Part shown: positions 899 to 18,877 of the stretch, one piece after another
How the letters are laid out: each line of letters begins with the position of its first letter
Numbering within the stretch: the first letter of the stretch is position 1
DNA from: Candidatus Zhuqueibacterota bacterium
Lineage (GTDB): Bacteria > Zhuqueibacterota > Zhuqueibacteria > Thermofontimicrobiales > Thermofontimicrobiaceae
Length of the DNA stretch: 64,000 nucleotides
Reading direction: 5' to 3'
Assembly (NCBI GenBank): GCA_049322915.1
Contig: JBMOPW010000016.1
Span: 199,971 to 263,970, forward strand
Made by a program: the position numbers and the translations under genes
The notes under the pieces: generated by a model
The model's database searches: none
What the model saw: only the letters and a program-made list of their open reading frames with translations
Told to the model about the DNA's origin: nothing

Positions 899-1042
899 AT
901 CGTTAACCTCCAGCATATTAAACACAGTGTCAGGATAAAACTTGCGGTGGTTTTCTCCGACGAATTTCAGGGGCGCTGCCTGTCAGAGCATTCACTGAGG
1001 GAAATGCGGCGCCGGCTTTTGTTTGAAGTAAAGTCACAGGAC

Positions 1043-1648: not shown

Positions 1649-1810
1649 TTTTCATTCAATTACGCGACCTATGCACGTTGAAACTCAATAAAAGATGCAC
1701 ACCTGATTTTATGACGACCGGCCCAGATCTTTTGTTTTGACATCGCACCGACAGGCGCGCGGGACTGCGGATTGCATGCGCGCCCCATCTCCGTTCGGCC
1801 AGAGATTGAA

Positions 1811-3502
1811 TTACTGAATCGTGAATCCAATGACGCGATAGTTGAACTCGTACGCCAGGCTGTTGCTCCATGCCGGCGCCAGAATGGTCTTGAAGCGCGT
1901 GCCATCGTCTGGGCCCACCGGTTTTCCGTAGGAATAGAACCAGTTCACAATGGGACGGCCGGAGAATCCCAGCGCGATCCAGTAGCGTCCCGGGGATATT
2001 GTGGGAGCGTCAGTTCCGAAATCAAAATCGACCCAATCGTAGCCCGGCGTGAATTTGATCTGATCCAGGCTCATCATCTCGCTGGTGGCAAGGGTCGCCC
2101 CGGGCAGGCCATTTTCATCCTTCAACAATTCCAGCCAGAGAAATCCGTTGCCGCCAAATTTGTGCAGCACCACCCCAATCTTGTTTGTCTTCATGGGTCG
2201 GTTCAATACAAAAACCTGGGCGTATTGCGCCTGCTCTGTGACATACTCCGCGGTCTCGACTAAAAAGTTCTTGCGCATCTCGAAATTATTGCCATCGGTG
2301 CGGGTCGCCGGTCCCCGAACTGCCAGGAAATCGACGTTGGCGGGAAATTCCAGATTGCCAAACATGAATGGTTTCGAGTAGGTCAGCACTTTCAATTTTT
2401 CTTCCGGGATTCTCAGCGGCGGCGCCTTTTTTTCTACCGGCACCGGCTGAAAGATGGCCTGAACCGAAGGCGTGAGCAGCAGTTTGCTCGGCCCGTACGA
2501 TTGTTTCTCCGCGGCGATATTCACCTGGTCGGAGACAAATGCGGCTTCGATGGATTCCTCGAACTGCGGCGTTGCCAGATCGCCTTTCATCTGGGTCCAG
2601 CGAATGAGTCCGTCCTGCGAGGTCTCCTCGTTATCCAGCCCGACTTCGACGCGAATGAACCGATTGCTGACGAATAACTGCGTCTGCTGGGGATCGAACG
2701 GGACCCAGCCCAGGTCCGGGAAATAGACCTCAATCCAGGAATGGCGCCCTTCGGCCATTTTCAGGGTCAGGTTCTGATTGCCCATTTTTAACGTGTAAGG
2801 TTGTTTCAGGGTGATGCCATTGACGATCCGCGCCGGAATTCCCACTGACCGCAGCAACGCTGCCGCAAGATGCGAATAGTTCTGGCAGTTGCCTTTGCCG
2901 GAGTTGAACGAATACAACGCACCGTATTCCTGGGGCACCAGCACGTAATTCATGTGGTCGATCACCCAGGTGAGAATTCGCTGCACAGCGTCGAATTCGA
3001 TCCTGGCGCCGGCCGTCAATTGTTTCGCCTTGGCCATGATGGACGCATGGGTGGAAGGCACCTGCTTGGTCGCCGTCAGGTACGGACTGATATCCGCCGG
3101 GACAGCGCCTAACGGGAAAGGTGACTTTGTGGTTAGCGGTTGCAGCAGGGTTTTATTCCGCGCAATCAGGCTCACTTCGGTCGTGACCGTGGATGTCGGC
3201 TGCGTCCAGGAAACCTTGACGACTTTATTACCGCGCTCATCAGTGTACTCTTCCTGTTTATCAGGCTGTGGAAAATATCTGAAATTCAGATTGGCAATGG
3301 TCTGATTGTATGTGGGCGACTGATAAGATACCGGCACAACGTAGCTCAGGTAAAGCGTGTGAATGGCCGGATTGGGCTCAACGGTTTGCACCATTTTATA
3401 ATTGATCTGGGACTCCTGTCCGCCATTCAGCAGATAATTCTCCCCGAAGGATGGGGCGCTGAATACGATGAGCAAAACGATACTGAGAAGAATTGTTTTC
3501 AT
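1811..3502 (-). CDS. Secreted transglutaminase-like (Cys-His-Asp) domain protein
   Basis: Signal peptide MKTILLSIVLL; GNCQNY (Cys), HSWIEVY (His), WVPFDP (Asp); extra C-terminal beta-rich domain. Confidence 0.88.
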   Translation of the reverse strand: MKTILLSIVLLIVFSAPSFGENYLLNGGQESQINYKMVQTVEPNPAIHTLYLSYVVPVSYQSPTYNQTIANLNFRYFPQPDKQEEYTDERGNKVVKVSWTQPTSTVTTEVSLIARNKTLLQPLTTKSPFPLGAVPADISPYLTATKQVPSTHASIMAKAKQLTAGARIEFDAVQRILTWVIDHMNYVLVPQEYGALYSFNSGKGNCQNYSHLAAALLRSVGIPARIVNGITLKQPYTLKMGNQNLTLKMAEGRHSWIEVYFPDLGWVPFDPQQTQLFVSNRFIRVEVGLDNEETSQDGLIRWTQMKGDLATPQFEESIEAAFVSDQVNIAAEKQSYGPSKLLLTPSVQAIFQPVPVEKKAPPLRIPEEKLKVLTYSKPFMFGNLEFPANVDFLAVRGPATRTDGNNFEMRKNFLVETAEYVTEQAQYAQVFVLNRPMKTNKIGVVLHKFGGNGFLWLELLKDENGLPGATLATSEMMSLDQIKFTPGYDWVDFDFGTDAPTISPGRYWIALGFSGRPIVNWFYSYGKPVGPDDGTRFKTILAPAWSNSLAYEFNYRVIGFTIQ

Positions 3503-3834
3503 GATGACTCCCGCGCTGATTAGTAAATTCATTCAATTGCTGGATTGGAATTTATGAATTTAACAGATGATTCACAAGCGAAATTTTCGTTGAGTCCCGG
3601 AAGGGACTTCGCACATCCAGGCGCGCTGTCCGGGGCAAACAGGTTGCCGAAGACAAAATGGCGCTGGATAGTAACCGTCGCAGTCAGACTTGAAAATGCT
3701 GGTGCTTTCACTGCTTCGACCGGATGAAATATGCCATGAATATATGAAAATAATCCGGATATATCAACCACAATTTCAACGAATTTCGGCCCCGGCGCAT
3801 CATGCAATTTCACCCGGCGCGTCGAAAAAATCAC

Positions 3835-3863
3835 TTGACAAATCAATTCTAAAATTGTATATT
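3835..3863 (+). promoter_or_regulatory. Sigma70-type promoter of the RpiR/cyanophycinase operon
   Basis: TTGACA (3835-3840), 17 nt spacer, TATATT (3858-3863), about 50 nt before the RpiR start. Confidence 0.7.
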
Positions 3864-3865
3864 GT

Positions 3866-3910
3866 TGCAAGAAAAATTTCATAATCAATAATTATGAAAT
3901 AAAAATTACA
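3866..3910. promoter_or_regulatory. Putative RpiR operator
   Basis: Perfect inverted repeat ATTTCATAAT-N5-ATTATGAAAT (3876-3900), overlapping two similar boxes TGCAAGAAAAATTTCA and TGAAATAAAAATTACA, between the -10 element and the start codon. Confidence 0.6.
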
Positions 3911-3915
3911 TACCG

Positions 3916-4776
3916 ATGGAAAAACGAAAAGCTATCGAAAGCGCTATTCTCAATGTAGTGCCTTCGCTGCCGGCCAATCAAAAGAAAGTGGCGAATTTCT
4001 TCCTGGAACATATCGATCTTGTTGCCCTGCTGCCCATCAAGGACGTCGCCAAAAAAGCTGAAGTCAGCGAAGCGTCCATCGTCCGATTCGCTCAGATGCT
4101 CGGATATAAGGGCTACAAGGAGTTGAAGGACGAACTGACAACCACACTGAAAAGCCAGCTTTCTCCTACTGAATTCTATCAATTCGCCATCTCAGAAAAA
4201 AGTAAAACCCCGGATATTTTCAAACTTGTCGCACACAATGTCATCACCAATATCAACGATAGCATTTCGAACATCGACATGAAAACGTTCTCTCACGTGG
4301 TTGATAGCATCATTTCAGCGCAGCGAATTTATTGTCTGGGAATGGAATTGTCCCATCACCTGTCGCGGCTGATGACCTTTTTGTTGCGCCAGTACAGTTA
4401 CGATGCAAATTATATGTCAGTTGATTTTTTGCAGTACCGCGAGCAGATCGCGTACATGAACAGCGCCGATCTGCTGATTGCCTTCAGTTTTTCGCCCTAT
4501 TCCAGGGAAACGGTGGAGGCGATCGGATTTGCCAGGGATCGGGGCATCAGGAGCATCGCGTTTACGGATAAAAAAACAGCGCCTATTCGGGAGTACGCCA
4601 CCTATTGCCTGCAAATCAAAACGGACAATATCATGTTCAGCAATTCGCTGGGAGCTATTGTCACTATCATTAATGCCATCATCATTGAGTTGAATTTTAG
4701 AGACAAAGAACGGACGCTTTCCGCATTGAAGATTATTGAAGAAAATATTAAGGACGAAAGGTACTTCATCTCATGA
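3916..4776 (+). CDS. MurR/RpiR family transcriptional regulator (HTH + SIS)
   Basis: HTH AKKAEVSEASIVRFAQMLGYKGYKELK; SIS domain DLLIAFSFSPYSRET...IAFTD. Confidence 0.95.
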   Translation: MEKRKAIESAILNVVPSLPANQKKVANFFLEHIDLVALLPIKDVAKKAEVSEASIVRFAQMLGYKGYKELKDELTTTLKSQLSPTEFYQFAISEKSKTPDIFKLVAHNVITNINDSISNIDMKTFSHVVDSIISAQRIYCLGMELSHHLSRLMTFLLRQYSYDANYMSVDFLQYREQIAYMNSADLLIAFSFSPYSRETVEAIGFARDRGIRSIAFTDKKTAPIREYATYCLQIKTDNIMFSNSLGAIVTIINAIIIELNFRDKERTLSALKIIEENIKDERYFIS

Positions 4777-5894
4777 ACGTCGATGAAAAGAAGCTGCTGG
4801 ATCTATTCATGCGCCTGATTCGCGTCGATAGCACGTCCCTCCACGAGCGGGCCATGGCGGATTTTTTAATTACTACATGCAACGATTGGAACATCAAGGT
4901 GGTCGAGGACGATGCCGCGGCCAAAGTCGGCGGCAACTCAGGCAATCTCATCATTCGTTTGTCTTCTGATTCGAACGATGCTCCACCATTGGCGCTGCTG
5001 GCGCACACGGATACAGTGCGCTCCACAGCCCAGGTGAAGCCCAACATCGAGCAGGGCGTGATTCGTTCCGATGGTTCAACAATTTTAGGAGCGGACAACC
5101 GCGGCGGTGTGGCTTTGATTTTGTACGTGATGCAGGAAATTATCGAACGAAAATTGAAACACCGCAGTCTGGAAATTGTTTTCACAGTCGCAGAAGAATT
5201 GGGAATGCTGGGGGCGCTGGCCCTGGACTACAGCCAATTGAAATCCCGGGAAGGCTATGTCTTCGATTGTTCGGCGAAACCCGGTAGCTACGTCAGCGAG
5301 TCTCCCACTGCCTACGATTTTCAGGTGACGTGCAAAGGCCGGCCGGCGCATTCTGCCGTTGCCCCGGAGAAAGGCATCAATGCCGTCCTGATGTCTCTGG
5401 ACGTCATGAATTCGTTTCCGGTCGGACGGCTCAATCAGCACACAGTGGCCAACATTGGCACGATTCAAGGCGGGACAGCCGATAATGTGGTCCCTGATCT
5501 GGTCAAAATCACCGGCGAATTTCGTTCGTTCGTTCCATCGGAAATTGATCGGCTGAAAATGATCCTGCAAAACGCGTGTCACTCAGCAGGGCAAAAATAT
5601 GGCGGTGTTTGCGATGTTGAGTTCAAGCTCAGCTTTAAGGGCTATACATTCAATTCGGCCATGCCAATGATTCGTCGGTTGCACGCGGCCATGCAGAAAT
5701 TGAATCTGGTCCCCAATGCCCTGGTCTATTCCGGGGGCAGTGACGTGAATGTGGTGAATGCCAATGGGATTCTGGCAGTGAATGTCGGGATTGGCGCCAG
5801 CAATCCCCATTCCAATGATGAACAAATCGCGATTTCAGATATGGCAAAAGGCGCAGCGTTGTTGCTGCACCTGATTGAAGCGGAGGAAGCATGA
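4773..5894 (+). CDS. M20 family peptidase T-like metallopeptidase
   Basis: AHTDTV, GADNRGG, AEELG, GGSDVN, NPHSNDE motifs; ATGA overlaps with both neighbours; no signal peptide. Confidence 0.92.
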   Translation: MNVDEKKLLDLFMRLIRVDSTSLHERAMADFLITTCNDWNIKVVEDDAAAKVGGNSGNLIIRLSSDSNDAPPLALLAHTDTVRSTAQVKPNIEQGVIRSDGSTILGADNRGGVALILYVMQEIIERKLKHRSLEIVFTVAEELGMLGALALDYSQLKSREGYVFDCSAKPGSYVSESPTAYDFQVTCKGRPAHSAVAPEKGINAVLMSLDVMNSFPVGRLNQHTVANIGTIQGGTADNVVPDLVKITGEFRSFVPSEIDRLKMILQNACHSAGQKYGGVCDVEFKLSFKGYTFNSAMPMIRRLHAAMQKLNLVPNALVYSGGSDVNVVNANGILAVNVGIGASNPHSNDEQIAISDMAKGAALLLHLIEAEEA

Positions 5895-6733
5895 GAAAAT
5901 TATTTTTCATTTCCCTTGTTCTGATCATGGCTCTGCTCGGCGGCGGGTCGTCTGCAAAAGAGAAAGGACATCTGCTCATCATCGGCGGCGGGGCCAAACC
6001 GCCGGACGCATTGGTCGAGTTCGTCACGCTGAGCCGGAGCGGTCACATCCTGATAATCACCTCAGCCAGCGGCGAACCGGAGTCCTACGGACCGGCGGTG
6101 GTGGAGCAATTCAAACAGGCCGGCGCCAAAAATGTGCACTGGCTGCACATCGACAGCCCGGAGATGGCGAACGCTGACTCCGTGGTGACGCGGATCGAAT
6201 CGTCGACCGGGATTTTTTTCACCGGCGGCATTCAGGAACGACTGATGCAACGCCTGGGAGGCACCCGCTCCGAGGCCGCTGTCGCCACACTCTATTTTGA
6301 AAAAGGCGGCATCATTGGCGGAACCAGCGCCGGCGCTGCAGTGATGAGCGAGGTCATGATTACCGGCAATGAATTGATCAACAAAGACACAACCGATGTG
6401 TTTTTCACCATTCAGGCAGGGAATATTGAAACGAAGCCGGGCTTTGGATTTTTGAAGAAGGTGATCATCGATCAGCATTTCATCGCGCGCAAGCGCCACA
6501 ATCGGCTCATCAGCCTTGTGCTGGAGCATCCCAAACTCGCGGGCATTGGCATCGACGAAGATACCGCGATCCTCGTGAGCCCGGACGATTCGTTCCGCGT
6601 GATCGGCACGGGATCCGTCGTGATCTACGATGCGCGCAAAGCCAAATCGGTTCGAATGGACCAATCCGGACTGTTGGCCGGCCAGGGACTCACCATGTCC
6701 ATTCTCCTCGCCGGAGATAAATTCCGCCTGTAG
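5891..6733 (+). CDS. cphB: Secreted cyanophycinase (peptidase S51)
   Basis: Signal peptide; IIGGG, FTGGIQ, GTSAGA (Ser), IDQHF (His) followed by RKRHNR, GIDEDT (Glu). Confidence 0.9.
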   Translation: MRKLFFISLVLIMALLGGGSSAKEKGHLLIIGGGAKPPDALVEFVTLSRSGHILIITSASGEPESYGPAVVEQFKQAGAKNVHWLHIDSPEMANADSVVTRIESSTGIFFTGGIQERLMQRLGGTRSEAAVATLYFEKGGIIGGTSAGAAVMSEVMITGNELINKDTTDVFFTIQAGNIETKPGFGFLKKVIIDQHFIARKRHNRLISLVLEHPKLAGIGIDEDTAILVSPDDSFRVIGTGSVVIYDARKAKSVRMDQSGLLAGQGLTMSILLAGDKFRL

Positions 6734-6903
6734 TGTTCTTTTCACGAATCCGGTGACGCAATCGCATTTCTCAATTTTCGCGCCATCTCCGGAGACCTGG
6801 CAACAGGACGAGGGCGCTGTTCAAAGCGGCAAAATTTGGGTTCGGCGACTTTGGTCAATTCAAAAGTCCACGGTTCCTGATACATTATTGAAAACAGAGG
6901 GAT

Positions 6904-8295
6904 ATGAAAATCAAATTTAATGTCAACACACTGGTGCTGATTTATGTCATTGTCATTCTCGTCGCGTTGCTCACGTGGATTGTTCCTGGCGGCGAATATC
7001 AGCGGGAAGTCCGGGATGGGAGAACGCTGGTAATCGCTGACTCGTTCACTTACGTCGACAGTCATCCCCAGGGCATTGGCGCTGTGCTAATGGCGCCGAT
7101 TCAGGGGTTCATCCAGGCTGCGCTGATCATCGCGTTCCTGTTCGTCATCGGCGGCGCGTTCAGCGTCATTCAGTCGACTGGCGCGATTACGGCATCGGTT
7201 CAGAAAATGGCTTTCTATTTCAGCAGTAAAAAGCATCTCCAGAAGTTTTTCATCCCGGTGACCATGCTGCTCTTTTCATTGGGCGGCACCTTGTTTGGCA
7301 TGTGCGAAGAGACCATGCCGTTCGTGCTGATTTTCATTCCGCTGTCGATTTCATTGGGCTATGATTCTCTGGTCGGAACGGCCATCCCATTTCTGGGCGC
7401 TGCTGCCGGATTTGCCGGCGCGATTTTCAATCCCTTCACTGTGGGCATCGCGCAAGGCATCGCAGAACTGCCGCTCTATTCCGGCATGGAATACCGCGCG
7501 TTTGTCTGGGTGTTGAGCACTGTTTTTATGACTGCCTTTGTGATGCGTTACGCCGCAAAAATAAAGGCGAACCCGAAGCTCAGTCCGGTCTACGAGATCG
7601 ATCAGGAACGGAAACATAACCTCCACCTGAACACCAACGAACAGACTGAATTTACGCTGTACCATAAACTGGTCATTCTGATCTTCGCTCTGGCCATGAT
7701 TCTTTTAGTGTTCGGCGTGCTGAAATTCCATTGGTACATCAATGAAATTGCTGGCCTGTTTTTGGGACTGGGCATCGTGGCCGGATTTCTGGGGAAATTG
7801 TCGCTCAATCAGATGACCGACAGCTTCAAGAATGGCGCGAAAGACATGATGGGTGTGGCGCTGATCATCGGCTGCGCCAAGGCCATTCTCGTCATTGCCA
7901 ATGACGGCAAAATTCTGGATGCCATGCTGTACAATCTGGCCAGTGTCATCACTCATTTTCATCGGATTGTTGCGGCTCAATCCATGTTCGTCACTCAGGC
8001 GATCATCAATTTCTTCGTGCATTCCGGTTCAGGCCAGGCTGCGCTGACCATGCCGGTCATGGCGCCGCTCGCTGACGTCATTGGCATTTCCCGACAGACG
8101 GCGGTGCTGGCCTTTGTCTTCGGCGAAGGCTGGATCAATCCCATTCTGCCCACATCCGGCGTCACCATGGGCGTGCTGGGGCTGGCCGGCATTTCCTGGG
8201 AGAAATGGGCGAAATGGATGCTGCCGATTCAGATTTTCTTCTTCATCGTAGCGCTGCTATTGTTAATTCCACCGGTGATTTTTCACTGGCAATGA
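6904..8295 (+). CDS. yfcC: YfcC/DcuC-like (basic amino acid/dipeptide) transporter
   Basis: LTWIVPGGEY, FGMCEET, NPFTVGIAQGIAELPLYSG, SGSGQAALTMP motifs; many TM helices. Confidence 0.88.
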   Translation: MKIKFNVNTLVLIYVIVILVALLTWIVPGGEYQREVRDGRTLVIADSFTYVDSHPQGIGAVLMAPIQGFIQAALIIAFLFVIGGAFSVIQSTGAITASVQKMAFYFSSKKHLQKFFIPVTMLLFSLGGTLFGMCEETMPFVLIFIPLSISLGYDSLVGTAIPFLGAAAGFAGAIFNPFTVGIAQGIAELPLYSGMEYRAFVWVLSTVFMTAFVMRYAAKIKANPKLSPVYEIDQERKHNLHLNTNEQTEFTLYHKLVILIFALAMILLVFGVLKFHWYINEIAGLFLGLGIVAGFLGKLSLNQMTDSFKNGAKDMMGVALIIGCAKAILVIANDGKILDAMLYNLASVITHFHRIVAAQSMFVTQAIINFFVHSGSGQAALTMPVMAPLADVIGISRQTAVLAFVFGEGWINPILPTSGVTMGVLGLAGISWEKWAKWMLPIQIFFFIVALLLLIPPVIFHWQ

Positions 8296-8573
8296 ACCTG
8301 TCGGGAAGACTCGTATCACGGTACTGATCTCGCTGGATTTTCATCCAGCGCGGGCAATGGCTGGGACGTATGTCCCCGAATGGGCGAACGTTCGGCTGGT
8401 GGTTACAACTGACGAAACAGTTACCAGTTCCAGTCTTTCGACATCTTTTTTTCTTGGAGTACTTGGTGAAGACTTTGAGCTTTGAGGTGAAGGTTTACAG
8501 TGCGTACGTTTGATTCAGGAATAAATTTTAAAAAAGTTAAACACGGCAATTATCTATGAATCCACTCCAACAA

Positions 8574-8730
8574 GGGGCTGAAGCCCCAAAATCAGAGGTG
8601 AATTTCTGTCCCCCGACTTAAAAGTCGGGACTGTTCAAGTTATCTAAATTTCAAATTTATCAATGAATTGCCACGTCATTCATAACGTGGAAAAGATTTT
8701 ATAACCAACGTATCAAGCCTTTTAAGGCTT
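8574..8730. repeat. Cluster of four short REP-like palindromes
   Basis: GGGGCTGAAGCCCC (8574-8587), CCCGACTTAAAAGTCGGG (8612-8629), CCACGTCATTCATAACGTGG (8671-8690), AAGCCTTTTAAGGCTT (8715-8730) in AT-rich spacer DNA. Confidence 0.6.
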
Positions 8731-8770
8731 TTTAGAGTCGACCCAGCAATTAAAATGAAGGAGGTAGGTT

Positions 8771-9937
8771 ATGTTTTCAAAAGTTACGATCAGTTTGATA
8801 AGCCTGATGTTAGTGACCGGTCTGTGCGTCGGGACAGTTCAGGCGCAAGTTACTTTGGACACCGGAAAAATTGGCGTTCGGATAACCAATGCCGGCAGCA
8901 TTCGATTGATGGCTCCCACGTCCAGCGATGATCAGCAGCTCTCCCGAATCAACATCATCGCTGCTTTATCGGAAGATGCAGTGTGCGATTACAACGAAGA
9001 TCAGGATGCTGTCATCCCGGCGTATCAGTTGACGACTCCGACCATTGCCGACGTTGAAGCGATTGCTGTGTATGACAATCGCTATACAAATTTGCCCCCG
9101 GATGTTACGTTCCGGCTGCATGCCTATGCCTGGAATAATGAGCCATTTATGATTGCGAAATACACGATCATCAACGACTCGACCGAGCAAGTGACTCTGT
9201 CACTAGGTTTGCTGACTGTCCCTCGAATAGCGGGTAATTATGGCGGTGAAACAGATGCATATGATGAAGCACATCGCCTGGCCTATTGTTATCGCGAGGG
9301 CGAAGCACCCCATGCCGGTTTTCGACTGCTGTCCATGGAGCCGCATTCGTTCCATGCGCTGGACTGGTTGGTCTATTCTCCTGCTGATCCCAACGCCGAT
9401 GCGGCTACAGACTCCACCCGCTATCACATGACGGCCGATGCCGGTTTTGATACGAGCATTGTGGCCGGCGGCGATGGCTCCATTTTCAGTTTGAATGCCG
9501 GCGCATTCACCCTGGCGGCCGGGGATTCTGTGATTCTGACATACGCAATCGTCTATGCCGATCTTGTAACGGACCTATTCGCTGCAGCCGACGCGGCCCA
9601 GGTGAAGTACGACAACGAAATGCTTTCTGTTCAAGATAGCAGCACGCCCAACACACCGACGCATTTTACACTATTTCAAAATTATCCCAATCCATTCAAT
9701 CCGAGCACCACGATTCGGTTCGATCTCAGTCGTTCGTCCGATGTGCAGTTGACTGTCTATAACACGCAGGGACAACTGGTGAACTCACTTCTGAAAGGCG
9801 CGTACTCTGCCGGCTGCCACGCAATCACGTGGAACGGGAATAGCACTACCGGCATTGAAGTCGGTTCCGGCGTGTATTTCTATCGTCTCACAGCCAATCA
9901 AATCACCGTCACTAAAAAGATGTTACTGGTTCATTAA
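8771..9937 (+). CDS. Secreted protein with C-terminal FlgD-Ig/T9SS-type sorting domain
   Basis: Signal peptide ending AQ; C-terminus [19 protein letters not shown]...GVYFYRL...KKMLLVH; GGAGG RBS. Confidence 0.85.
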   Translation: MFSKVTISLISLMLVTGLCVGTVQAQVTLDTGKIGVRITNAGSIRLMAPTSSDDQQLSRINIIAALSEDAVCDYNEDQDAVIPAYQLTTPTIADVEAIAVYDNRYTNLPPDVTFRLHAYAWNNEPFMIAKYTIINDSTEQVTLSLGLLTVPRIAGNYGGETDAYDEAHRLAYCYREGEAPHAGFRLLSMEPHSFHALDWLVYSPADPNADAATDSTRYHMTADAGFDTSIVAGGDGSIFSLNAGAFTLAAGDSVILTYAIVYADLVTDLFAAADAAQVKYDNEMLSVQDSSTPNTPTHFTLFQNYPNPFNPSTTIRFDLSRSSDVQLTVYNTQGQLVNSLLKGAYSAGCHAITWNGNSTTGIEVGSGVYFYRLTANQITVTKKMLLVH

Positions 9938-10093
9938 TGTGTGGGGGCTGCACCGGAATTCATGCCTGATGGACGCATGCTGCCTTCCTGAGAGTGAGTC
10001 GGTTCTGCTCGCTCCGAGGCATGCTGTGCGCATTCAGCGATGCTTTTGGTGCAGCCCCTCCAGCGTATTGCACGAATTTTTGAGGCGTACACA

Positions 10094-12565
10094 ATGAAAA
10101 GATTAGTCTTGATATTTCTCTTCATTTTGCCGGTGTCGCTCAGCGCAGGCGTTACCGGCAAATTGTCCGGAACGATCACGGACGCTTCCACCGGCGAAGC
10201 CCTTATTGGCGCAACAGTGCTCATCGCTGGCACCAATCTGGGAGCAGCGACAGATTTGGATGGGAAATTTATCATCCTGAACATCCCACCCGGCAGCGTG
10301 ACGATTCGCGCCAGCTATATCGGTTATGAATCGGCCGCAATATCCAACGTGAAAATAATGATGGACCTGACGACGACCATCACTATCAAGCTGCGGGAGT
10401 CGACCATCGAGCTGGGGCAGGAGGTGGTGATCACAGCCGAAAAGCCGATGATTCAAAAAGACCTCACCAGTTCCAGCGCCTATATGAGACGCGACGAAAT
10501 AGAGGGTCTGCCGGTCTCGGATTTTAGCGATGTGCTGGCCCTGCAGGCCGGAGTGACAGATCAGGAAGGCAGCCTCCATATCCGCGGCGGGCGCTCCAAT
10601 GAAGTGGCATTTCTGATTGACGGCATGTACGTACATGATCCGTTGTTGGGCAGAATGATCACGCAAATCAACAACGACGCGATTCAGGAGATGAGTCTGC
10701 TGAGCGGCACGTTCAATGCCGAGTATGGCAATGCGCTCAGCGGTGTTGTCAATATTGTCACGCGCGATGGGGGTGTTAAGCACAGCGGTCGGATGGAGGC
10801 CCGAACCAGCGAATTCGGCCTGGATCGTTACAATAAGCTGGGTGAAAATCGGTTGAATGGCAATCTCGGCGGCCCTTTTATCACTGAAAAAATCCGCTAT
10901 TTCATTTCAGGCGAGCAGAACAACCGCGACAACTATCTACCTTTTGGCTACGAAGATAACATGACGTTCTTCAGCAAATTGTCGTTCAATTTTTTCCCGG
11001 GATTGAAATTCGTCCTTTCCAATCGCGGCAGCAAGGGGGAGCGACAGGGCTACAGTCACAGTTACAAGTATATTCCCGAACAATATCTGAAGAGTCGAAG
11101 GAATAGCTGGCAAACCACCCTGACGGTTTCCCACATGCTTCGGTCGAATTTATTTTACGATGCGCGCGTCTCATATCTGGAACAGGATTACTACTCCGGT
11201 GTGGACAAAGACACGTCGGAATACCTTTCCACGTCTGAGTGGGAATATTTGACCAACGTCGGCAACAGTTTTGAATTCTGGCAACGCGCCGACCCATTGG
11301 AAATGATCGATAGCAAGACAAAAACCGCGGATTTCAAAGGCGATCTGGTCTGGCAGGCGGGCAAAATCAATGAAGTGAAAGTCGGCTTGCAGTACAAGAA
11401 ACACTGGCTGAATCTGTTCAGCGTATATGATCCGAAGCGAAATTACCCGTACATCAATGACTACCGCATTCAGCCGTTCGAAGCCGCTGCGTATTTCCAG
11501 GATAAAATTGAATTCCCGTTTTTAATCATCAATCTGGGACTGCGTTACGATTATTTTAATGCCAATGCTACATTTCGCGGGGACCCACTGGACACACAAG
11601 CTGCGTTCATTCAGGTCAAATCGAGGTCGCAGTTCAGTCCGCGCGTCGGCATTGCCCATCCGGTCTCCGATAAAACCAAGCTACATTTCGCCTATGGCCA
11701 TTTTTTCCAGAATCCGGAGTACCAATATCTGTTTGAAAACAATCAATATGATTTGAACGTGCGGGAGCCGTTGTTCGGCCAGCCGAATCTGGATGCGGAG
11801 CGGACTATCGCCTACGAAGTCGGTGTTTCGCACCAGTTTTCTGATCGCATTGCCGCGCATCTGACGGCGTATTACAAGGACGTCACCGGGCTAATCGGCA
11901 CCCGCTACTTCGAGGCGTTCATGGGGAACACCGGGCGCTACGTTGGCTATACGGTATACATCAATGAAGATTACGCCAATATCAAAGGTTTCGAGATCAA
12001 CGCCGATGTTCGGCCGGGGAAATATCTGTCCGGCGGCCTGAGCTATACGTTCATGATTGCCAAAGGCAGCGCTTCGTCTGAAACCGAGCAATACCCCGGC
12101 ACCGAAGAATCAACCCGACTCTATTTCCTTAATTATGACCAGCGGCATAATCTGAATATGACGGCAACGTTTCAAATTCCGAAAGATGAGGGGCCGATCC
12201 TGTTTGGCTATCATTGGCTGGCCAATACCGATTACAGCGTGGTGTTACGGGCGAGCTCCGGCTTCCCGTACACACCGAGCGGCAGGGACATTGGTTTCGT
12301 CGATAGAAACTCGTTGCGAATGCCGGGCCGGTACTCCATGGATCTGGAAATTGGCAAGGAATTTTCCAGCATCTTCCAGACAAGAATTCGCGTCTTCGCA
12401 GAGGTCCTGAATCTGACCGATCATCGCAATGTGCTGTACGTCTATGGCGACACAGGGGAACCGGATTTCACCTTCGAAGGCGGCCATTCAGCCGAATGGA
12501 TGAACGATCCCTCGAATTACGGCCCGCCGCGAAGCATTCGGTTGGGGATCGGAATGCGATTCTAA
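10094..12565 (+). CDS. TonB-dependent receptor with N-terminal carboxypeptidase-regulatory-like domain
   Basis: GKLSGTITDASTGEALIGA; plug LHIRGGRSNEVAFLIDG, FNAEYGNALSGVVNIVT; barrel ending LGIGMRF. Start moved to MKRLVL after GAGG. Confidence 0.95.
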   Translation: MKRLVLIFLFILPVSLSAGVTGKLSGTITDASTGEALIGATVLIAGTNLGAATDLDGKFIILNIPPGSVTIRASYIGYESAAISNVKIMMDLTTTITIKLRESTIELGQEVVITAEKPMIQKDLTSSSAYMRRDEIEGLPVSDFSDVLALQAGVTDQEGSLHIRGGRSNEVAFLIDGMYVHDPLLGRMITQINNDAIQEMSLLSGTFNAEYGNALSGVVNIVTRDGGVKHSGRMEARTSEFGLDRYNKLGENRLNGNLGGPFITEKIRYFISGEQNNRDNYLPFGYEDNMTFFSKLSFNFFPGLKFVLSNRGSKGERQGYSHSYKYIPEQYLKSRRNSWQTTLTVSHMLRSNLFYDARVSYLEQDYYSGVDKDTSEYLSTSEWEYLTNVGNSFEFWQRADPLEMIDSKTKTADFKGDLVWQAGKINEVKVGLQYKKHWLNLFSVYDPKRNYPYINDYRIQPFEAAAYFQDKIEFPFLIINLGLRYDYFNANATFRGDPLDTQAAFIQVKSRSQFSPRVGIAHPVSDKTKLHFAYGHFFQNPEYQYLFENNQYDLNVREPLFGQPNLDAERTIAYEVGVSHQFSDRIAAHLTAYYKDVTGLIGTRYFEAFMGNTGRYVGYTVYINEDYANIKGFEINADVRPGKYLSGGLSYTFMIAKGSASSETEQYPGTEESTRLYFLNYDQRHNLNMTATFQIPKDEGPILFGYHWLANTDYSVVLRASSGFPYTPSGRDIGFVDRNSLRMPGRYSMDLEIGKEFSSIFQTRIRVFAEVLNLTDHRNVLYVYGDTGEPDFTFEGGHSAEWMNDPSNYGPPRSIRLGIGMRF

Positions 12566-12709
12566 GTATCAACAATAGATCCTGTTCTCAGTCGACACGT
12601 TTCGAGAGGCAACGACGTTGCGGATCCCGAACAACTCCTGCTTGACTCAGAGGAATCCGCAATTCCAGCGGGCTCATAAATTTTGAATTCTAACGAATGA
12701 TGGTGGTCA

Positions 12710-15520
12710 ATGATGAAAAAAATATTAATCATGCTCCAAACCATTCTACTCCTGACGTCACTTGCGGTGGCTCAGCCAGCTGTAAAAGAAAAGGACAAAG
12801 AGGCCAGGGACGTTTTTGTGGAAAAAGCTTCCGGCGTCGAAGACCGGGCCGGCGGCACGCACAATGCCAGCAACATCGGCCTGTTTTTTGAAAACAGGGG
12901 CAAACTGTATCCGCGCCGACTGACCCAGGGGCCCTCCGGGGAATTTCCCATTGGATCGGCAAAGCATTATGTCTACCGAATCAATCCCATGGTTGGAATT
13001 CCCGGCAATGTCATTCAGGGCCGCTACACGACCAATGAGGAATGGGAAGCAGTCGGTGGGTATCACAACCGGGAGTTCGCGAAGATCGCGTTCAGCGATA
13101 ATCCCAGTTCCTGGAATACGACCCTGGGCTGGCCGGTCAAAGACGCTGAAGGGAATCCGATTTTCAAATCGGATCAGGACAGTTATTGCGTGTACGATGA
13201 CGCCAACAATTCCGTGAAGCGATTGGGGGTGACGGTGATCCAGACCGGTTATGCCTATGGCGTCACGTTCGCCCAGAATTTGATATTCTACAAGTTCGAA
13301 GTAGTCAACAACGGCGCGAACGATCTGAACGACCTGTATTTTGCCATGTACTGCGACATGGATATTGGCAACGTGAGCGGGGGTACGCCGGAGTACGGCG
13401 ATGATCGGATCGATTTTGACAGGCAGAATAATTTTGTCTATAGTTTTGATGATGGCCTTTCCGATGAGTGGGCTGGCGGCGTCACCGGCTACATGGGTGT
13501 GGCCATGCTCAAGACACCGGAGGTCAATGGCGTCGAACTGGGCGTCACGGATATGCATTACAATGTTTATGATGACGATAAAGACGATGATAGTCTGCAA
13601 TTCGCCATCCTGTCCAGCAGAACCGATATGGTCGATCCGCAGTCGCTGGTGCCGCGATATTTTCACCCGGGGGCTGGCGGCGATCTCCATTTTGATGATC
13701 CGGCGACAATTCCCGCGTCTGGAATCGATCTTCTGGCGACCATCAGTTCCGGCCCTTACCAGCTTCAGCGCGGCGATACACTGGTATTTTACATGGCGCT
13801 GATTGCCGGGAATAATCTGGACGATCTCTACAACTCACTGTACACAGCCCAACGCATTTTGGATTTCGATTTCGAAATCAGCAAACCGCCCCGAACACCG
13901 ACGCTGAGCGCCCATGCCGGCGATGGCCGCGTGACGCTCTTCTGGAATGATTTCGCCGAGTTATCGCTCGATAATTATTCCGGCGAATATGATTTCGAGG
14001 GCTATCGAATTTACAAGAGTCTGGATAAAGGGCTGCATTGGGACCAATTCGATAGAAATGTTGATCCGTCCGTGGGGGAGGAACCTGTGCCACTGGCGCA
14101 GTTCGATATTATCAATAACCTGGGACTGGATTCCGGGCTGCAGTACAGCTTCACAGATACCAGCGTTCATAACGGCTTCGAATATTGGTACACAGTCACG
14201 GCATTCGATCGCGGCGATGAATCGGTCGAAAGTCTCGAAAGCCCAAAAGGCAATTCCACCGACGCTCTCAATACCGTGTCCGTCATTCCCAAATCGAACG
14301 CTTCCGGGCGTACGCCGGTCTCGTCCGAATCGGTGAGCCATATCGGACTGGGAAAATCCAACTACGTGCTTGATGTTGAACCGATCGATGAGGATTCACT
14401 GGGCGACCGCGAATACCAGATCAGGTTCTCGTACGTTCAGAGGACGATTCGGGGAACGTTGAAGACGACCATCGTGCCAATTATCTCGGATTCCGCCCGG
14501 ACTGAGTCGAAACGGTATGGCGTGGAATTCATCTCGCCGACGTCGTTTCATCTGATTGATCTGAACACCGGCGATTATATTGGCTCGGACCCGCGCAATT
14601 ATCGCTCCGGCACCACGTATTCGCTCAATGCCGGCATGAAGATAAAAATCGTGGATCCTGATCCGACTGCTGCTCCGGAGTTCCTGCCCAAAGCCGATGA
14701 TTATCTCACGCTCAATTACGCCGCCCATGTCGTGCGCAATAACGCCGATACTATCATGGCGCAGCAGCCGTTCATCATCGGGAAAAAGCATGCCACCAGC
14801 GATGGTGTTGTGTTCAGTCTGGATCCACCCGAAACCATTCAAAGCGTCTCGCGCGTGGGAGGCGCCGACATTCTTGATATCAGCTTCTCAGTCTACGACG
14901 CAACGCTGGTGCAAAACGATACGGTCCTCATTTCCATTCAGCAGAGTGGCTTCGATGGGAGCGGCAATGGATTTGTGTCCGTGCTCATCGAACATGCAAA
15001 TGATGAGTCGGTGACGGTCGATTCGTTGTACAATCTGGACAGCTTTGAATTCGACGGAATTCGCGGCACGCTCGAATTCCAGTCCGCCAACCCGCCCGGT
15101 CCCGGCAATGCATTCGTCATTGTCACCCTTGTGCCTGTGGCGCCGAACATCCGGGACGCCTATCGTTTCAGAATAAAAGGCTCCGTCGTCGAACAGGCGC
15201 GCAGTGACAGCGAGTTGGAGGGCATCAAAGTGGTGCCAAATCCCTATCTGGTCTCTTCATTGTATGAACCTGAATTTGGTGAATTGAGGCGAGAACCCAT
15301 TCGACAGATTCAATTCATCAATTTACCCCAGGAATGCACCATCTATATTTTCACCATTGCCGGCGATCGCGTCAAAACGATTGACCATTCTGCACGGAAC
15401 GGCACGGAGACCTGGGATTTGCGTTCTGATGGCGGACGTGAAATTGCGTCCGGCGTTTATCTTTATATGGTTCGGACGCGAAACGCTCAATTCAAAGGGA
15501 CATTTGCAGTGATCAAATGA
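12710..15520 (+). CDS. Large secreted protein with Fn3-like module and C-terminal sorting domain
   Basis: Signal peptide; AGDGRVTLFW...DFEGYRIYKS...NGFEYWYTVTAFD (Fn3-like); C-terminal IKVVPNPY...WDLRS...IASGVYLY. Confidence 0.8.
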   Translation: MMKKILIMLQTILLLTSLAVAQPAVKEKDKEARDVFVEKASGVEDRAGGTHNASNIGLFFENRGKLYPRRLTQGPSGEFPIGSAKHYVYRINPMVGIPGNVIQGRYTTNEEWEAVGGYHNREFAKIAFSDNPSSWNTTLGWPVKDAEGNPIFKSDQDSYCVYDDANNSVKRLGVTVIQTGYAYGVTFAQNLIFYKFEVVNNGANDLNDLYFAMYCDMDIGNVSGGTPEYGDDRIDFDRQNNFVYSFDDGLSDEWAGGVTGYMGVAMLKTPEVNGVELGVTDMHYNVYDDDKDDDSLQFAILSSRTDMVDPQSLVPRYFHPGAGGDLHFDDPATIPASGIDLLATISSGPYQLQRGDTLVFYMALIAGNNLDDLYNSLYTAQRILDFDFEISKPPRTPTLSAHAGDGRVTLFWNDFAELSLDNYSGEYDFEGYRIYKSLDKGLHWDQFDRNVDPSVGEEPVPLAQFDIINNLGLDSGLQYSFTDTSVHNGFEYWYTVTAFDRGDESVESLESPKGNSTDALNTVSVIPKSNASGRTPVSSESVSHIGLGKSNYVLDVEPIDEDSLGDREYQIRFSYVQRTIRGTLKTTIVPIISDSARTESKRYGVEFISPTSFHLIDLNTGDYIGSDPRNYRSGTTYSLNAGMKIKIVDPDPTAAPEFLPKADDYLTLNYAAHVVRNNADTIMAQQPFIIGKKHATSDGVVFSLDPPETIQSVSRVGGADILDISFSVYDATLVQNDTVLISIQQSGFDGSGNGFVSVLIEHANDESVTVDSLYNLDSFEFDGIRGTLEFQSANPPGPGNAFVIVTLVPVAPNIRDAYRFRIKGSVVEQARSDSELEGIKVVPNPYLVSSLYEPEFGELRREPIRQIQFINLPQECTIYIFTIAGDRVKTIDHSARNGTETWDLRSDGGREIASGVYLYMVRTRNAQFKGTFAVIK

Positions 15521-15601
15521 TGCCCGGTTCGGGCTTCAGGGATAGATTGCCATGATAAGTCTGAAATTACATACACCGTTAAAACAAGCAGGTGAGCACG
15601 C

Positions 15602-16600
15602 ATGAACAAGATAAAAACTCTGGTGATTCTCTGTGTTCTGGCCGGGACGCTTCAGGGTCTGGCCCAGAATCCGAACCTGGGGACGAGCGGCGCGCAATTT
15701 CTCAAAATCCCCATCAGCGCGCGCGCGGCAGCTATGGGCGGCGCCTATACCGGCGTTTGTCAGGATGCGACGTCCGTGTTCTGGAACCCGGCCGGCATTG
15801 CGAATGTCAAAACCCATTCCGCCCATTTTTCGTTCACCAAATGGTTCGATACGTTCGATGTCAATGCAGCGTCTTATATTTACAATGGCGGTCAATTTGG
15901 CGTGGTTGCGGTGAGCATGCTGATGCTGGGCGTCGATGAGATGGAAGTGACCACGGAATTTTCTCCCAATGGCACCGGCCGATTTTTCGATGCGCAGGAT
16001 CTGGCGCTGGGCCTGAGCTATGGCCGGAATCTGACGGATCGATTTCGCATCGGTCTGACAGCGAGGTATGTGCAGCAGCGAATCTGGAACGAAACGGCCA
16101 ACGGGATCGCATTTGATGTGGGCACGCAATACCAATTGGCGTTCAGAAATATGACCATTGCCATGAGCATGACCAATTTTGGGCCGGATATGCAATTCGG
16201 CGGGCCGGATTTGAGCGTCACATACGACAACGACGCGAATTTTCCCAACCGATTGGTACCGACGCGGCTGGAAACTGAGACCTATCCGCTCCCGTTGAAT
16301 TTTGAATTTGGCATTGCCATGGATCTGTATTCGTCCCAATTCGTAAGCGCAATCGTCGCCGTGGATGCGGTCCATCCGAATGACAATCAGGAGCGAATCC
16401 ACATTGGGACAGAGGTGTCATTTTACGACCGGCTGTTCTTCCGCGGCGGGTATAAACTAAATCATGAAGACGAAATGTATAATTTCGGAAGCGGCGTCAC
16501 GGCCTTCATCGCCGGCGCCGTGCTCAGCTTTGATTACGCCTTTTCCGTCTACGACATTCTGCCAGATGTGCATCGGTTTTCTTTTGGGGTGAATTTTTGA
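15602..16600 (+). CDS. PorV/PorQ (UPF0164-like) outer-membrane beta-barrel
   Basis: GTSGAQFLKIPISARAAAMGGA...SVFWNPAG; ends HRFSFGVNF. Confidence 0.88.
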   Translation: MNKIKTLVILCVLAGTLQGLAQNPNLGTSGAQFLKIPISARAAAMGGAYTGVCQDATSVFWNPAGIANVKTHSAHFSFTKWFDTFDVNAASYIYNGGQFGVVAVSMLMLGVDEMEVTTEFSPNGTGRFFDAQDLALGLSYGRNLTDRFRIGLTARYVQQRIWNETANGIAFDVGTQYQLAFRNMTIAMSMTNFGPDMQFGGPDLSVTYDNDANFPNRLVPTRLETETYPLPLNFEFGIAMDLYSSQFVSAIVAVDAVHPNDNQERIHIGTEVSFYDRLFFRGGYKLNHEDEMYNFGSGVTAFIAGAVLSFDYAFSVYDILPDVHRFSFGVNF

Positions 16601-16634
16601 GCGCGCGTCCGGCTTCGACGCGAAATTTGGAGCG

Positions 16635-17468
16635 ATGACGATGAACAGAGGTGGCTCACGCAGAACCGCGTGGCCGATGCTTTACGCAGTCGCGCTGGTC
16701 TTGATATTGGGTCCGTTTCAGGGCTGCTCGCTCGTGCATCATTCTGTGGCCGCCCTGAGATCCACGGATCGGTTCATCCCGAACGAAATCGATGACAGAG
16801 TGTTCTTCGAGCCCGGCGCTGAGGTGATTGCGAATAAGGTGGCTTTGTTTCTCCCATCGGCCGTGAATCGCGTCGAGGAGAAGCAGTTTCAGCGATTCGC
16901 CGATCCGGTTCGGGTCTATGTCTGCGTATCGCGCGAGAGTTTCAGGAAATTTTACGGGGCTGATGTGCGCGCTGGTGTATTGACAAAGCTGTTCCTGTCA
17001 CCCCGCATCTTCGAATTTGGGGATGACATCGCTGAAAAATATGTGACGCATGAATTGTCCCATCTACATTTGCTGCAACACATCGGTATTTTCAAAATGA
17101 GCCGGTTGCCCACGTGGTTCAAAGAAGGGCTGGCGACATCTGTCTCGGACGGTGGAGGCGCCCATTTGATTTCGCCGGAACAGGCGGTTGAAGCGATTCA
17201 TTCGGGCAAAAACCTTGTTCCCAATGAAGCGGACGGACTATTCATTAGAAAGACTCCCAGCGATTTTGGACTGGAGCCGCATCTGTTCTATCGGCAAAGC
17301 ATGATGTTCGTCGATTATCTGGCAGCCATCGACGCGCCGGCGTTTCGAAACCTGATGCTGTCCGTCGAACAGGGAGAACGGCTTTCTGCTGCCATCGATG
17401 AAGCGTACCATAACAATCTGGATGAATTGTGGCGCGGATTTTTGAATGAAGTGAAAAAGAAGGATTGA
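16635..17468 (+). CDS. Zn-metallopeptidase (gluzincin/MA-like), probable lipoprotein
   Basis: HELSH...PTWFKEGLA; hydrophobic N-terminus with FQGC lipobox. Confidence 0.75.
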   Translation: MTMNRGGSRRTAWPMLYAVALVLILGPFQGCSLVHHSVAALRSTDRFIPNEIDDRVFFEPGAEVIANKVALFLPSAVNRVEEKQFQRFADPVRVYVCVSRESFRKFYGADVRAGVLTKLFLSPRIFEFGDDIAEKYVTHELSHLHLLQHIGIFKMSRLPTWFKEGLATSVSDGGGAHLISPEQAVEAIHSGKNLVPNEADGLFIRKTPSDFGLEPHLFYRQSMMFVDYLAAIDAPAFRNLMLSVEQGERLSAAIDEAYHNNLDELWRGFLNEVKKKD

Positions 17469-17480
17469 TATTCAAATAAA

Positions 17481-17514
17481 CGCGCCGGGATGAATCGAAC
17501 TCGTTCCCGGCGCG
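17481..17514. terminator. Hairpin between convergent genes
   Basis: CGCGCCGGGA...TCCCGGCGCG 10-bp stem. Confidence 0.55.
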
Positions 17515-17668
17515 GTGTATTCTTTTAATTGCAGTCGGCCCGGACGCCCTGTCCTGATTGAGAGAAAAGACACGGCGAGATCAAAAAAATTGAACCTGTT
17601 CACCTCTGAAAACCGCATACGGATGTGATTCTGCTTCGGACTGGAATTGCTCTTTCAAAACCTCGGCA

Positions 17669-18877
17669 TCACGCCCCGAATTTCAGCAATCGTTTGGCAT
17701 TGGCCAGAATGACCGGCATCAGATCTTTGCTCGGCATTCGTCCCAATCCTCCCTGAATACAGGCGATTTCATCGAACTGAGTGACGTTGTCTTTGCGGCA
17801 ATATTTCGAATATAGCAGCACCGGCACCGGGTGCCAGCTATGCGACGCTAACGCCGCAGGCGTGGAATGATCGGCGGTCACGACCATTACGTCCGGATTG
17901 AGCCGGGTGAGCAATGGGATCAATTTGTCCACTTCTTCGATGACGTTCACTTTCCCATCAAAAGCGCCGTCCTCGCCGCGGGAATCTGTCGGTTTGACGT
18001 GCACGAAGAAGTAGTCATATCGATCGTAATTCGCTTTCACGACTTCGAATTCTTCCCTGATGTCAGCGACCACCGGATGCAGATCCATATTGAGCAGAAA
18101 AGCGACGCCGCGATACATGGGATAATTGGCGATGGCCAGGCTTCTCAATTTGTATCGTTCCCACATGGATTTATAAGGTTTATGCCTGGCGAATCCGCGC
18201 AGCAGCAGGGTGTTGGCTTTCTCTTCATTCGCCAGAGCGGCATGCGCCTGATCCAGAAACCGCTGCGCCAGTCGCGCGGTCACTTCGCTTTGTTTATTCA
18301 ACGCGTGCGGCTTCAGGTAGGGGACGCCCTCTTTCTGGGGGTCTGTATCCTCCACATCGCCGCCGAGATTGTCTCCGCGAAGCAGCAGCGCAGCGCGGTG
18401 CTCTTTGACCGTCTCGATGACGAACTCCGCATCCGGCGCCAGAGAGACATTGTCGCGGATGATCTTGCAGATACGCTTGTTAGACTCGCTGTCGATTCTG
18501 CCGGCGCGTCGGTCGGTGATATTGCCCTGTTTATCCGACGTGGCAAAATTGATTCGGATGGCCACATCGCGATCCGTCATGGGCAAATTAATGCCGGCTG
18601 CTTCCAGCACGCCGCGGCCAATATTGGCCTCAATGGGATTGTAGCCAAAAAGAGCAAAATGAGCCGGGCCGCTTCCCGGCGTGATGCCCGGCAGGATGGG
18701 ATCCATCAGACCGCAAATGGATTCCGCCGCCAGCTTGTCCAGGTTTGGTTTGTGCGCAGCTTGCAGTTCTGTCCCCCGGCTATCGGTATTCAGACCGCCG
18801 AGTCCATCCATCACAAGAAATATAATTTTTGTGGTATTTTCAATTGTCAAATGATCGACAAAATTTTCCATGTCCAT
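17669..18877 (-). CDS. apgM: Cofactor-independent phosphoglycerate mutase, ApgM (archaeal-like) type
   Basis: VMDGLGG, TPGSGPAH, GRGVLEAAG, ITDRRAGRI, HVKPTDSRGEDG, TADHSTP, HSWHPVP. Confidence 0.93.
   Translation of the reverse strand: MDMENFVDHLTIENTTKIIFLVMDGLGGLNTDSRGTELQAAHKPNLDKLAAESICGLMDPILPGITPGSGPAHFALFGYNPIEANIGRGVLEAAGINLPMTDRDVAIRINFATSDKQGNITDRRAGRIDSESNKRICKIIRDNVSLAPDAEFVIETVKEHRAALLLRGDNLGGDVEDTDPQKEGVPYLKPHALNKQSEVTARLAQRFLDQAHAALANEEKANTLLLRGFARHKPYKSMWERYKLRSLAIANYPMYRGVAFLLNMDLHPVVADIREEFEVVKANYDRYDYFFVHVKPTDSRGEDGAFDGKVNVIEEVDKLIPLLTRLNPDVMVVTADHSTPAALASHSWHPVPVLLYSKYCRKDNVTQFDEIACIQGGLGRMPSKDLMPVILANAKRLLKFGA

Follow-up and report, generated by a model that had tools for sequence, protein, structure and literature searches.

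Eight consecutive plus-strand genes (positions 3916 to 16600) in a 64,000-nucleotide stretch of a Candidatus Zhuqueibacterota genome (contig JBMOPW010000016.1; here, the window) very probably form one conserved locus and functional unit. As judged from their sequences, we put the probability at roughly 0.65 that this locus scavenges environmental cyanophycin or cyanophycin oligomers, with cyanophycin as its main substrate. A preliminary description of the window had proposed a cyanophycin-scavenging locus of nine codirectional open reading frames (ORFs). All nine are present where it placed them, and profile searches uphold its family assignments; the scavenging interpretation is supported for genes 1 to 8 but does not extend to gene 9, a HExxH protein. 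The eight genes, which include proteins with a type IX secretion system (T9SS) C-terminal domain (CTD), are the following.

3916 to 4776, plus strand: gene 1, RpiR-family regulator with HTH_6 and SIS domains (profile matches; in most linked loci)
4773 to 5894, plus strand: gene 2, cytoplasmic PepT-like M20 metallopeptidase, candidate beta-Asp-Arg dipeptidase (profile matches, metal ligands)
5891 to 6733, plus strand: gene 3, exported S51 cyanophycinase-like enzyme (TIGR02069, PDB matches, key residues, hydrophobic N terminus)
6904 to 8295, plus strand: gene 4, YfcC/DcuC-family inner-membrane transporter (profile matches; after S51 in nearly all linked loci)
8771 to 9937, plus strand: gene 5, T9SS type-A CTD protein (TIGR04183 passed; N-domain homologous to that of gene 7)
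10094 to 12565, plus strand: gene 6, TonB-dependent receptor of an S51-linked clade (profile matches, trees)
12710 to 15520, plus strand: gene 7, large secreted partner with a beta-supersandwich N-domain, FN3/Ig-like domains, and a PorZ-like C-terminal domain (structure model)
15602 to 16600, plus strand: gene 8, PorV/PorQ-family barrel, likely anchor of the partner (NF033709 passed; 3′ of the partner in 16 triads)

Linkage of the S51 and receptor genes across the phylum

A set of 164 phylum genomes, each at least 70% complete, was queried separately with the S51 enzyme and with the receptor, the latter at a threshold of E ≤ 1e-150 with six candidates scored per genome. S51 enzymes exceeded 200 bits in 44 genomes and receptors passed in 36, 35 of which were among the 44. 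In 29 of these 36 genomes (our own included), spanning seven families, the receptor lies 1.5 to 6.4 kb downstream of S51 on the same strand. The preliminary description had regarded the join between genes 1 to 4 and the receptor cassette as its weak point and would have given up the proposal if receptor orthologues elsewhere were not linked to cphB; the observed linkage removes that doubt. The linked receptors fall into subtypes that are only 36 to 42% alike, yet they form one clade apart from the paralogues of this genome (SH support of 99 in FastTree with 34 linked and 20 paralogue rows; 100/99 in IQ-TREE with 12 and 12 rows), a separation that is partly built in because the tree rows were picked by similarity or linkage.

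Gene order adds further details. In 14 of the 36 loci, the RpiR gene precedes the receptor and follows either YfcC or gene 5, so that the two halves are interleaved. In one relative (L031, L052), a single S51-YfcC pair is followed by two tandem triads of receptor, partner, and barrel, each with a different receptor of the clade. Among the seven genomes in which the link is missing, one has a contig break within gene 5 (L070/L071) and another has the receptor on a 3.7-kb contig. Two more (L061 and L096) keep the M20 gene, in one case together with RpiR, directly before the triad, with S51-YfcC elsewhere.

The 475-nt spacer between genes 4 and 5 (8296 to 8770) had been taken as a possible divide. 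Its length, its hairpins (fold z of −2.7), and a T-run near 8447 are as described, but its role as a locus boundary is not borne out, as it consists largely of dispersed repeats belonging to two palindromic families. A terminator scan listed no site in the spacer, and in 30 of 35 relatives' loci the gap from YfcC to the next gene is at most 150 nt (longest-ORF starts).

8324 to 8403, no strand: dispersed repeat A (41 other blastn matches in the genome), an insertion and not a locus boundary
8550 to 8760, no strand: dispersed repeat B (67 other blastn matches in the genome, 35 of them at least 150 nt long)

Beyond these genomes, a wider genome scan gave 579 confirmed stretches, of which the best 80 were retained; six that repeated stretches already in the set were dropped. 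The survey covers 120 S51 loci in all; statements on the wider scan refer to these 80. Records titled candidate division KSB1 are among the closest named relatives (57 to 61% identity). The triad occurs in at least 39 of the 120 loci, 37 of which have the M20 gene and none of which has IadA or IaaA. The co-occurrence that the preliminary description had proposed to look for is seen here, as the same layout recurs in records titled Ignavibacteria (six), Caldithrix (L117), and Fidelibacterota (L111). SusC/SusD-like genes are found in at least 17 S51 loci (13 Bacteroidota and 4 Gemmatimonadota); among the 17 listed, none has this M20, two have IaaA-like genes, and two have IadA. The Bacteroidota arrangement agrees with the type of cyanophycin locus put forward in 2017.

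The S51 enzyme and its relatives

Gene 3 passes the cyanophycinase profile TIGR02069 (177.1 bits; cutoff, 126.6), and its PDB matches are 7UQV (best), 3EN0, and 7UQW. The Ser-His-Glu triad (S146, H196, and E223, aligned with 3EN0) and the RxRxxR motif (R200/R202/R205) are intact, as reported earlier. Residues given as critical in Synechocystis CphB are Ser132, Gln101, Asp172, Gln173, Arg178, Arg180, and Arg183, alongside the Ser-His-Glu triad (PMC3235067). Gene 3 keeps all nine published key residues, its pocket positions Q115, D194, Q195, R200, R202, and R205 corresponding to CphB Gln101, Asp172, Gln173, Arg178, Arg180, and Arg183. Among 40 triad-linked enzymes (CphB numbering), Q101, S132, Q173, H174, R180, R183, and E201 are conserved in all, and D172 and R178 are conserved in 39. 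Two deviations flagged previously, GGGAK and GGIQ in place of GGAED and GGDQ, are confirmed. GGIQ is a local variant, GGDQ being present in 24 of the 40 linked enzymes (D in 24, V in 15, and I in 1), and the change from GGAED to GGGx[KR] runs through the whole clade, including Bacteroidota enzymes encoded beside IadA. A signal-like hydrophobic stretch is present in 38 of 39 linked S51s by a crude hydrophobicity test. We propose that the gene 3 enzyme would hydrolyze cyanophycin to beta-Asp-Arg.

The organism does not appear to be a producer. The absence of cphA from the window, stated in the preliminary description, extends to the 96.3%-complete genome, where the best match reaches 154 bits against a cutoff of 850. 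Only 3 of the 164 phylum genomes carry cphA, and none of these is among the 44 with S51.

The source genome has two further S51 genes. One encodes a 569-amino-acid (aa) enzyme with a T9SS tail (L050:13534-15243, contig C14); although unlinked to the locus in this genome, this CTD-bearing S51 is part of the system, and in 16 of the 36 triad loci an S51 of this kind occupies the 3′ end. Its structure model (predicted local distance difference test [pLDDT] score, 90) gives a template modeling (TM) score of 0.85 to 7UQV over the target. Its middle domain had no clear match in Foldseek and may conceivably be a decayed S51-domain repeat (14%; E = 0.002). A separate exported S51 clade of the phylum (L062, L098, L099, and L101) carries R183D (4/4) together with D100R and probably has a different specificity.

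Several neighboring genes probably handle arginine. An NhaC-family carrier with a sub-cutoff ArcD match is found in 9 of 36 loci, and in L039 an arginine decarboxylase and an agmatinase follow S51-YfcC. In the source genome, an arginase-family gene adjoins a pyruvoyl arginine decarboxylase; PF04952 and arginine deiminase gave no matches there. One Syntrophomonadaceae record has a CphB-IaaA-CphA cluster (L164:9938-15825) that includes a member of the exported S51 clade lacking the signal. The transporter itself scores 347 bits with PF03606 (cutoff, 23) and 402 bits with NF008611 (cutoff, 500).

Promoter and predicted operators

Upstream of gene 1 are a promoter and two operators, located as follows.

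3835 to 3863, plus strand: sigma-70-type promoter TTGACA-17-TATATT, the best match of the region (11/12)
3866 to 3881, no strand: predicted operator 1, a 16-bp palindrome-like site, likely RpiR bound (matrix score, 19.9)
3895 to 3910, no strand: predicted operator 2, 29 bp after operator 1 (matrix score, 21.9)

Similar −35 and −10 boxes lie 5′ of RpiR in most relatives. The operator matrix was trained on the relatives alone, with the window left out, and the sites at 3866 and 3895 are the sole tandem pair among 223 genome-wide matches scoring above 12. The underlying pattern, TG[AT]AA-N6-TT[TAG]CA with sites 29 to 30 bp apart, yields 45 sites, spread over 24 of the 25 regions upstream of RpiR (at least two sites in 20 of them), against a shuffle mean of 0.07, although it was read by eye from the very sequences later counted, which tells against our interpretation. 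The operator also precedes M20 in 9 of 50 loci, in most of which M20 is the first gene of the cluster, and it was found before no receptor, partner, or barrel gene in the same set (repeated loci included in both counts). The region upstream of the unlinked CTD-bearing S51 gene is operator free. This placement fits one operon under RpiR autoregulation via the tandem operators, and genes 1 to 8 are likely a single RpiR-controlled operon.

The surface module

For the receptor, ATG 10094 is a more probable start than 10040, since alignments with relatives begin at the former. The receptor is not of the SusC type (TIGR04056, 104 bits; cutoff, 368), and no SusD or carbohydrate-active enzyme (CAZyme) match was found among the nine genes. 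The barrel passes NF033709 (213.8 bits; cutoff, 90), with a PorQ score above that for PorV. The partner (936 aa; weak CTD match; model pLDDT, 72) has an N-domain with the beta-supersandwich fold (VIA-align Z of about 16 to GH94/GH15-type N-domains at 8 to 12% identity), and its C terminus matches the PorZ C-terminal domain (Z of 13.1; root mean square deviation, 1.9 Å; 30% identity). Gene 5 encodes a short protein in which a homologue of the partner N-domain (hhalign, 98.6%; E = 9e-16) is joined to a type-A CTD. With SprA encoded in the source genome, the T9SS set of cargo CTD, PorV/PorQ-family barrel, and SprA is complete. Gene order and domain anatomy suggest that the barrel is likely the partner's own anchor and that the partner and gene 5 protein could take a SusD-like role. 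A complex prediction for the receptor barrel (residues 220 to 823) and the partner N-domain (36 to 394) scored 0.01.

The M20 peptidase and the last dipeptide step

The M20 protein scores just below the TIGR01883 cutoff (268.6 versus 274.25 bits), passes the Pfam cutoff, and has the metal ligands H78, D108, E141/E142, D165, and H346. An arginine follows the bridging aspartate (R110) in all 49 M20 locus rows, where the two paralogues of this genome and PDB entries 3GB0 and 3RZA have lysine. The gene lies directly before S51 in most loci, and none of 46 M20 loci has IadA or IaaA. M20 is missing in 8 of the 44 S51 genomes, all of which have IadA (three) or an IaaA-like gene (five). Conversely, 24 of the 36 S51 genomes with M20 lack both IadA and IaaA at the thresholds used, and six M20 genomes (89 to 100% complete) gave no match for IadA, Asparaginase_2, or PF04952. 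In the source genome, IadA was not found, and an IaaA-like gene is on another contig, unlinked. This pattern makes the M20 a fair candidate dipeptidase, not more; that it is the beta-Asp-Arg dipeptidase of the locus is a real possibility, if somewhat short of an even one.

Other peptidases were seen in related loci. Four SusCD-type loci (L139:10872-12182, L141, L161, and L130) have a signal-bearing glutamate-carboxypeptidase-like M20 beside S51, with neither IadA nor IaaA in the stretch, and this enzyme is a second candidate dipeptidase. L193, L194, and L196 are sister loci in which a more distant M20 accompanies NhaC, SusC(D), or a receptor triad, S51 being absent from the stretch read. An asparaginase-family gene found in three loci was considered as IaaA and dropped, as it is closer to glycosylasparaginase.

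Proposed mechanism and alternatives

In the mechanism that we propose, the second S51, with its T9SS tail, would be secreted and cut the polymer outside the cell. In SusD's place, the partner (anchored to the PorV-like barrel by its C-terminal domain) and the gene 5 protein would bind substrate at the surface, and the TonB receptor would import oligomers or dipeptides. The periplasmic signal-peptide S51 would complete cleavage to beta-Asp-Arg, YfcC would move the dipeptide into the cytoplasm, and Asp and Arg would be freed by M20 or by the unlinked IaaA-like enzyme. RpiR would repress its own promoter via the two operators until product binds.

Several observations weigh against this mechanism, and they bear on different parts of it. 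The triad is generic, with 16 complete copies among the 23 receptor-like ORFs of the genome, which makes chance adjacency a real rival: genes 1 to 4 could be a peptide-uptake operon that happens to abut a generic receptor triad (genes 5 to 8), separated from it by a structured spacer. The link is missing in 7 of 36 receptor genomes, in three of which, all from one genus, the genes are plainly apart, and the related genomes are kin rather than independent samples. Nevertheless, linkage across seven families, the single clade of linked receptors, RpiR on the cassette side in 14 loci, the M20 gene that stays with the triad in L061 and L096, the repeat origin of the spacer, and the confinement of operators to the start largely refute this explanation, which we regard as very improbable. 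A single conserved uptake operon could also serve another beta-aspartyl or isopeptide substrate, such as polyaspartate, isoAsp peptides that arise as proteins age, or remnants of Asn-linked glycopeptides. The acids of the N-terminal GGAED motif are lost clade-wide, and 16 of the 40 linked enzymes have V or I in place of D100. The best structural match carries the title "pseudo-CphB" and is reportedly inactive although its motifs are intact, so motif retention is no proof of activity. The partner N-domain resembles glycan-enzyme domains (a fold match that shows no function), a glycosylasparaginase-like gene is in the locus of three genomes of one genus, and 38 of the 120 S51 loci listed have no marker gene at all. 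IadA and IaaA are, moreover, promiscuous (PMC10206079). Against a different substrate stand the retention of every residue named critical for cyanophycinase, the clade member within a cphA cluster (L164), the recurrent arginine-handling neighbors, and the separate PepE-like enzyme that the source genome encodes; we consider such a substrate unlikely, though less so than chance adjacency.

Cyanophycin could also be scavenged with M20 as a general di/tripeptidase, the last step then falling to an unlinked IaaA or asparaginase-family enzyme. The source genome has an IaaA-like gene to fill this role, and a more distant Asparaginase_2 member is present in 18 of the 24 M20 genomes without IadA or IaaA matches. 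In family f8, genomes without this S51 carry the same M20 subfamily on its own, and receptor-bearing loci with a more distant M20 show no S51 in the stretch read. The position of M20 directly before S51 in most loci, the lack of IadA and IaaA from its loci, the presence of IadA or an IaaA-like gene in every S51 genome without M20, and the six genomes with no match for a known substitute all speak for a dedicated role, and we see a general peptidase as possible but slightly less so than a dedicated dipeptidase. Cyanophycin scavenging by genes 1 to 8 is the reading that we prefer whichever enzyme performs the last step.

Surrounding sequence

Gene 9 (16635 to 17468; HExxH, weak PF13485 match) was rejected as a locus member, as none of the 169 fetched stretches of related loci holds a homologue. 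Named homologues of this lipoprotein-like peptidase are found in Desulfobacterota and Nitrospirota records, and it is likely a separate acquisition. On the minus strand, divergent from the locus (398 to 3532), are genes for a transglutaminase-domain secreted protein, an ECF (extracytoplasmic function)-sigma-like ORF, and an anti-sigma-like ORF, the latter two recognized by sequence reading only. An Rfam scan of 3400 to 18000 gave a single match at chance level (E = 0.4).

Comparison with known systems

The scavenging-locus concept is supported but not new. In 2017, Ben Hania et al. (cited in PMC10206079) put forward a cyanophycin utilization locus for Salinivirga cyanobacteriivorans L21-Spi-D4, a species with one monomeric and one Por-domain S51 (PMC6243061). 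Gene context had already prompted the proposal that cyanophycin is a TonB substrate (PMC3400609), CphZ and beta-Asp-Arg scavenging have been described (PMC9974463), and isoaspartyl dipeptidases are noted as still missing in several lineages (PMC9974463 and PMC10206079). No description of a triad-plus-M20 locus was found among the literature titles and abstracts searched, a scope that excludes subscription papers and supplements.

Like CphB (Synechocystis; 3EN0/7UQW) and CphE (Pseudomonas), the gene 3 enzyme has the S51 fold, the Ser-His-Glu triad, and a pocket of Gln, Asp, and three Arg residues. At 280 aa, it is CphB sized, but it is exported, as is CphE, and has GGGx[KR] in place of GGAED; the CTD-bearing S51 has Ser/Thr at Gln173, where CphE has Thr. 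Gene 3 falls into a separate clade that excludes most of the cphA-linked enzymes. The M20 is unrelated to the isoaspartyl dipeptide hydrolases IadA, IaaA, and CphZ, its nearest solved relatives being entries named peptidase T and tripeptidase (3GB0 and 3RZA), but it shares with those three hydrolases a location beside a cyanophycinase and a transporter. PorZ pairs with PorQ in the attachment complex of type IX secretion; our pair resembles it in the PorZ-like C terminus of the partner and the higher PorQ score of the barrel. Here, however, the pair is a private one behind a TonB receptor, present many times per genome, and partner-barrel binding is only presumed.

We suggest, tentatively, that this is a second architecture for scavenging polymer nitrogen, in which a T9SS partner on a private barrel would do SusD's job for a nonribosomal peptide polymer, and that the Arg110-type M20 may be a fourth beta-Asp-Arg hydrolase family after IadA, IaaA, and CphZ. 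If so, the uncharacterized TIGR01883 group would gain a function, and the missing isoaspartyl dipeptidases would have a specific candidate, marked by a diagnostic residue. Cyanophycin scavenging would reach a largely uncultured phylum (enzyme in 44 of 164 genomes, synthetase in 3), one clade of the common and uncharacterized triad would have a predicted ligand that is small and purchasable, and the operator would offer a handle on the inducer.

The locus shares with that of Salinivirga a scavenging cluster in a nonproducer, cyanophycinase genes (monomeric and Por-domain S51), a dipeptidase (here, the M20 candidate), and a transporter. The genome has a cyanophycinase and no cphA, and the cluster includes YfcC/DcuC and a TonB receptor. 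Unlike a Salinivirga-type locus, it has no iadA or iaaA, a PepT-like M20 taking that position, and the second S51, with its T9SS domain, is present but unlinked. RpiR with tandem operators is a feature of our locus, the Salinivirga gene map lying outside the text used for comparison. As in polysaccharide utilization loci of the SusC/SusD type, a TonB receptor, surface proteins, hydrolases, an inner-membrane carrier, and a local regulator are clustered, but the receptor here is not of the SusC type, SusD and CAZymes find no match among the nine genes, and the hydrolases are peptidases. Where Bacteroidota S51 loci carry SusC/SusD, this one carries the receptor, CTD partner, and PorV-like barrel. 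By this comparison, the locus likely works as a cyanophycin utilization locus that departs from the known form in lacking iadA and SusCD, and the combination of triad and M20 is likely what is new.

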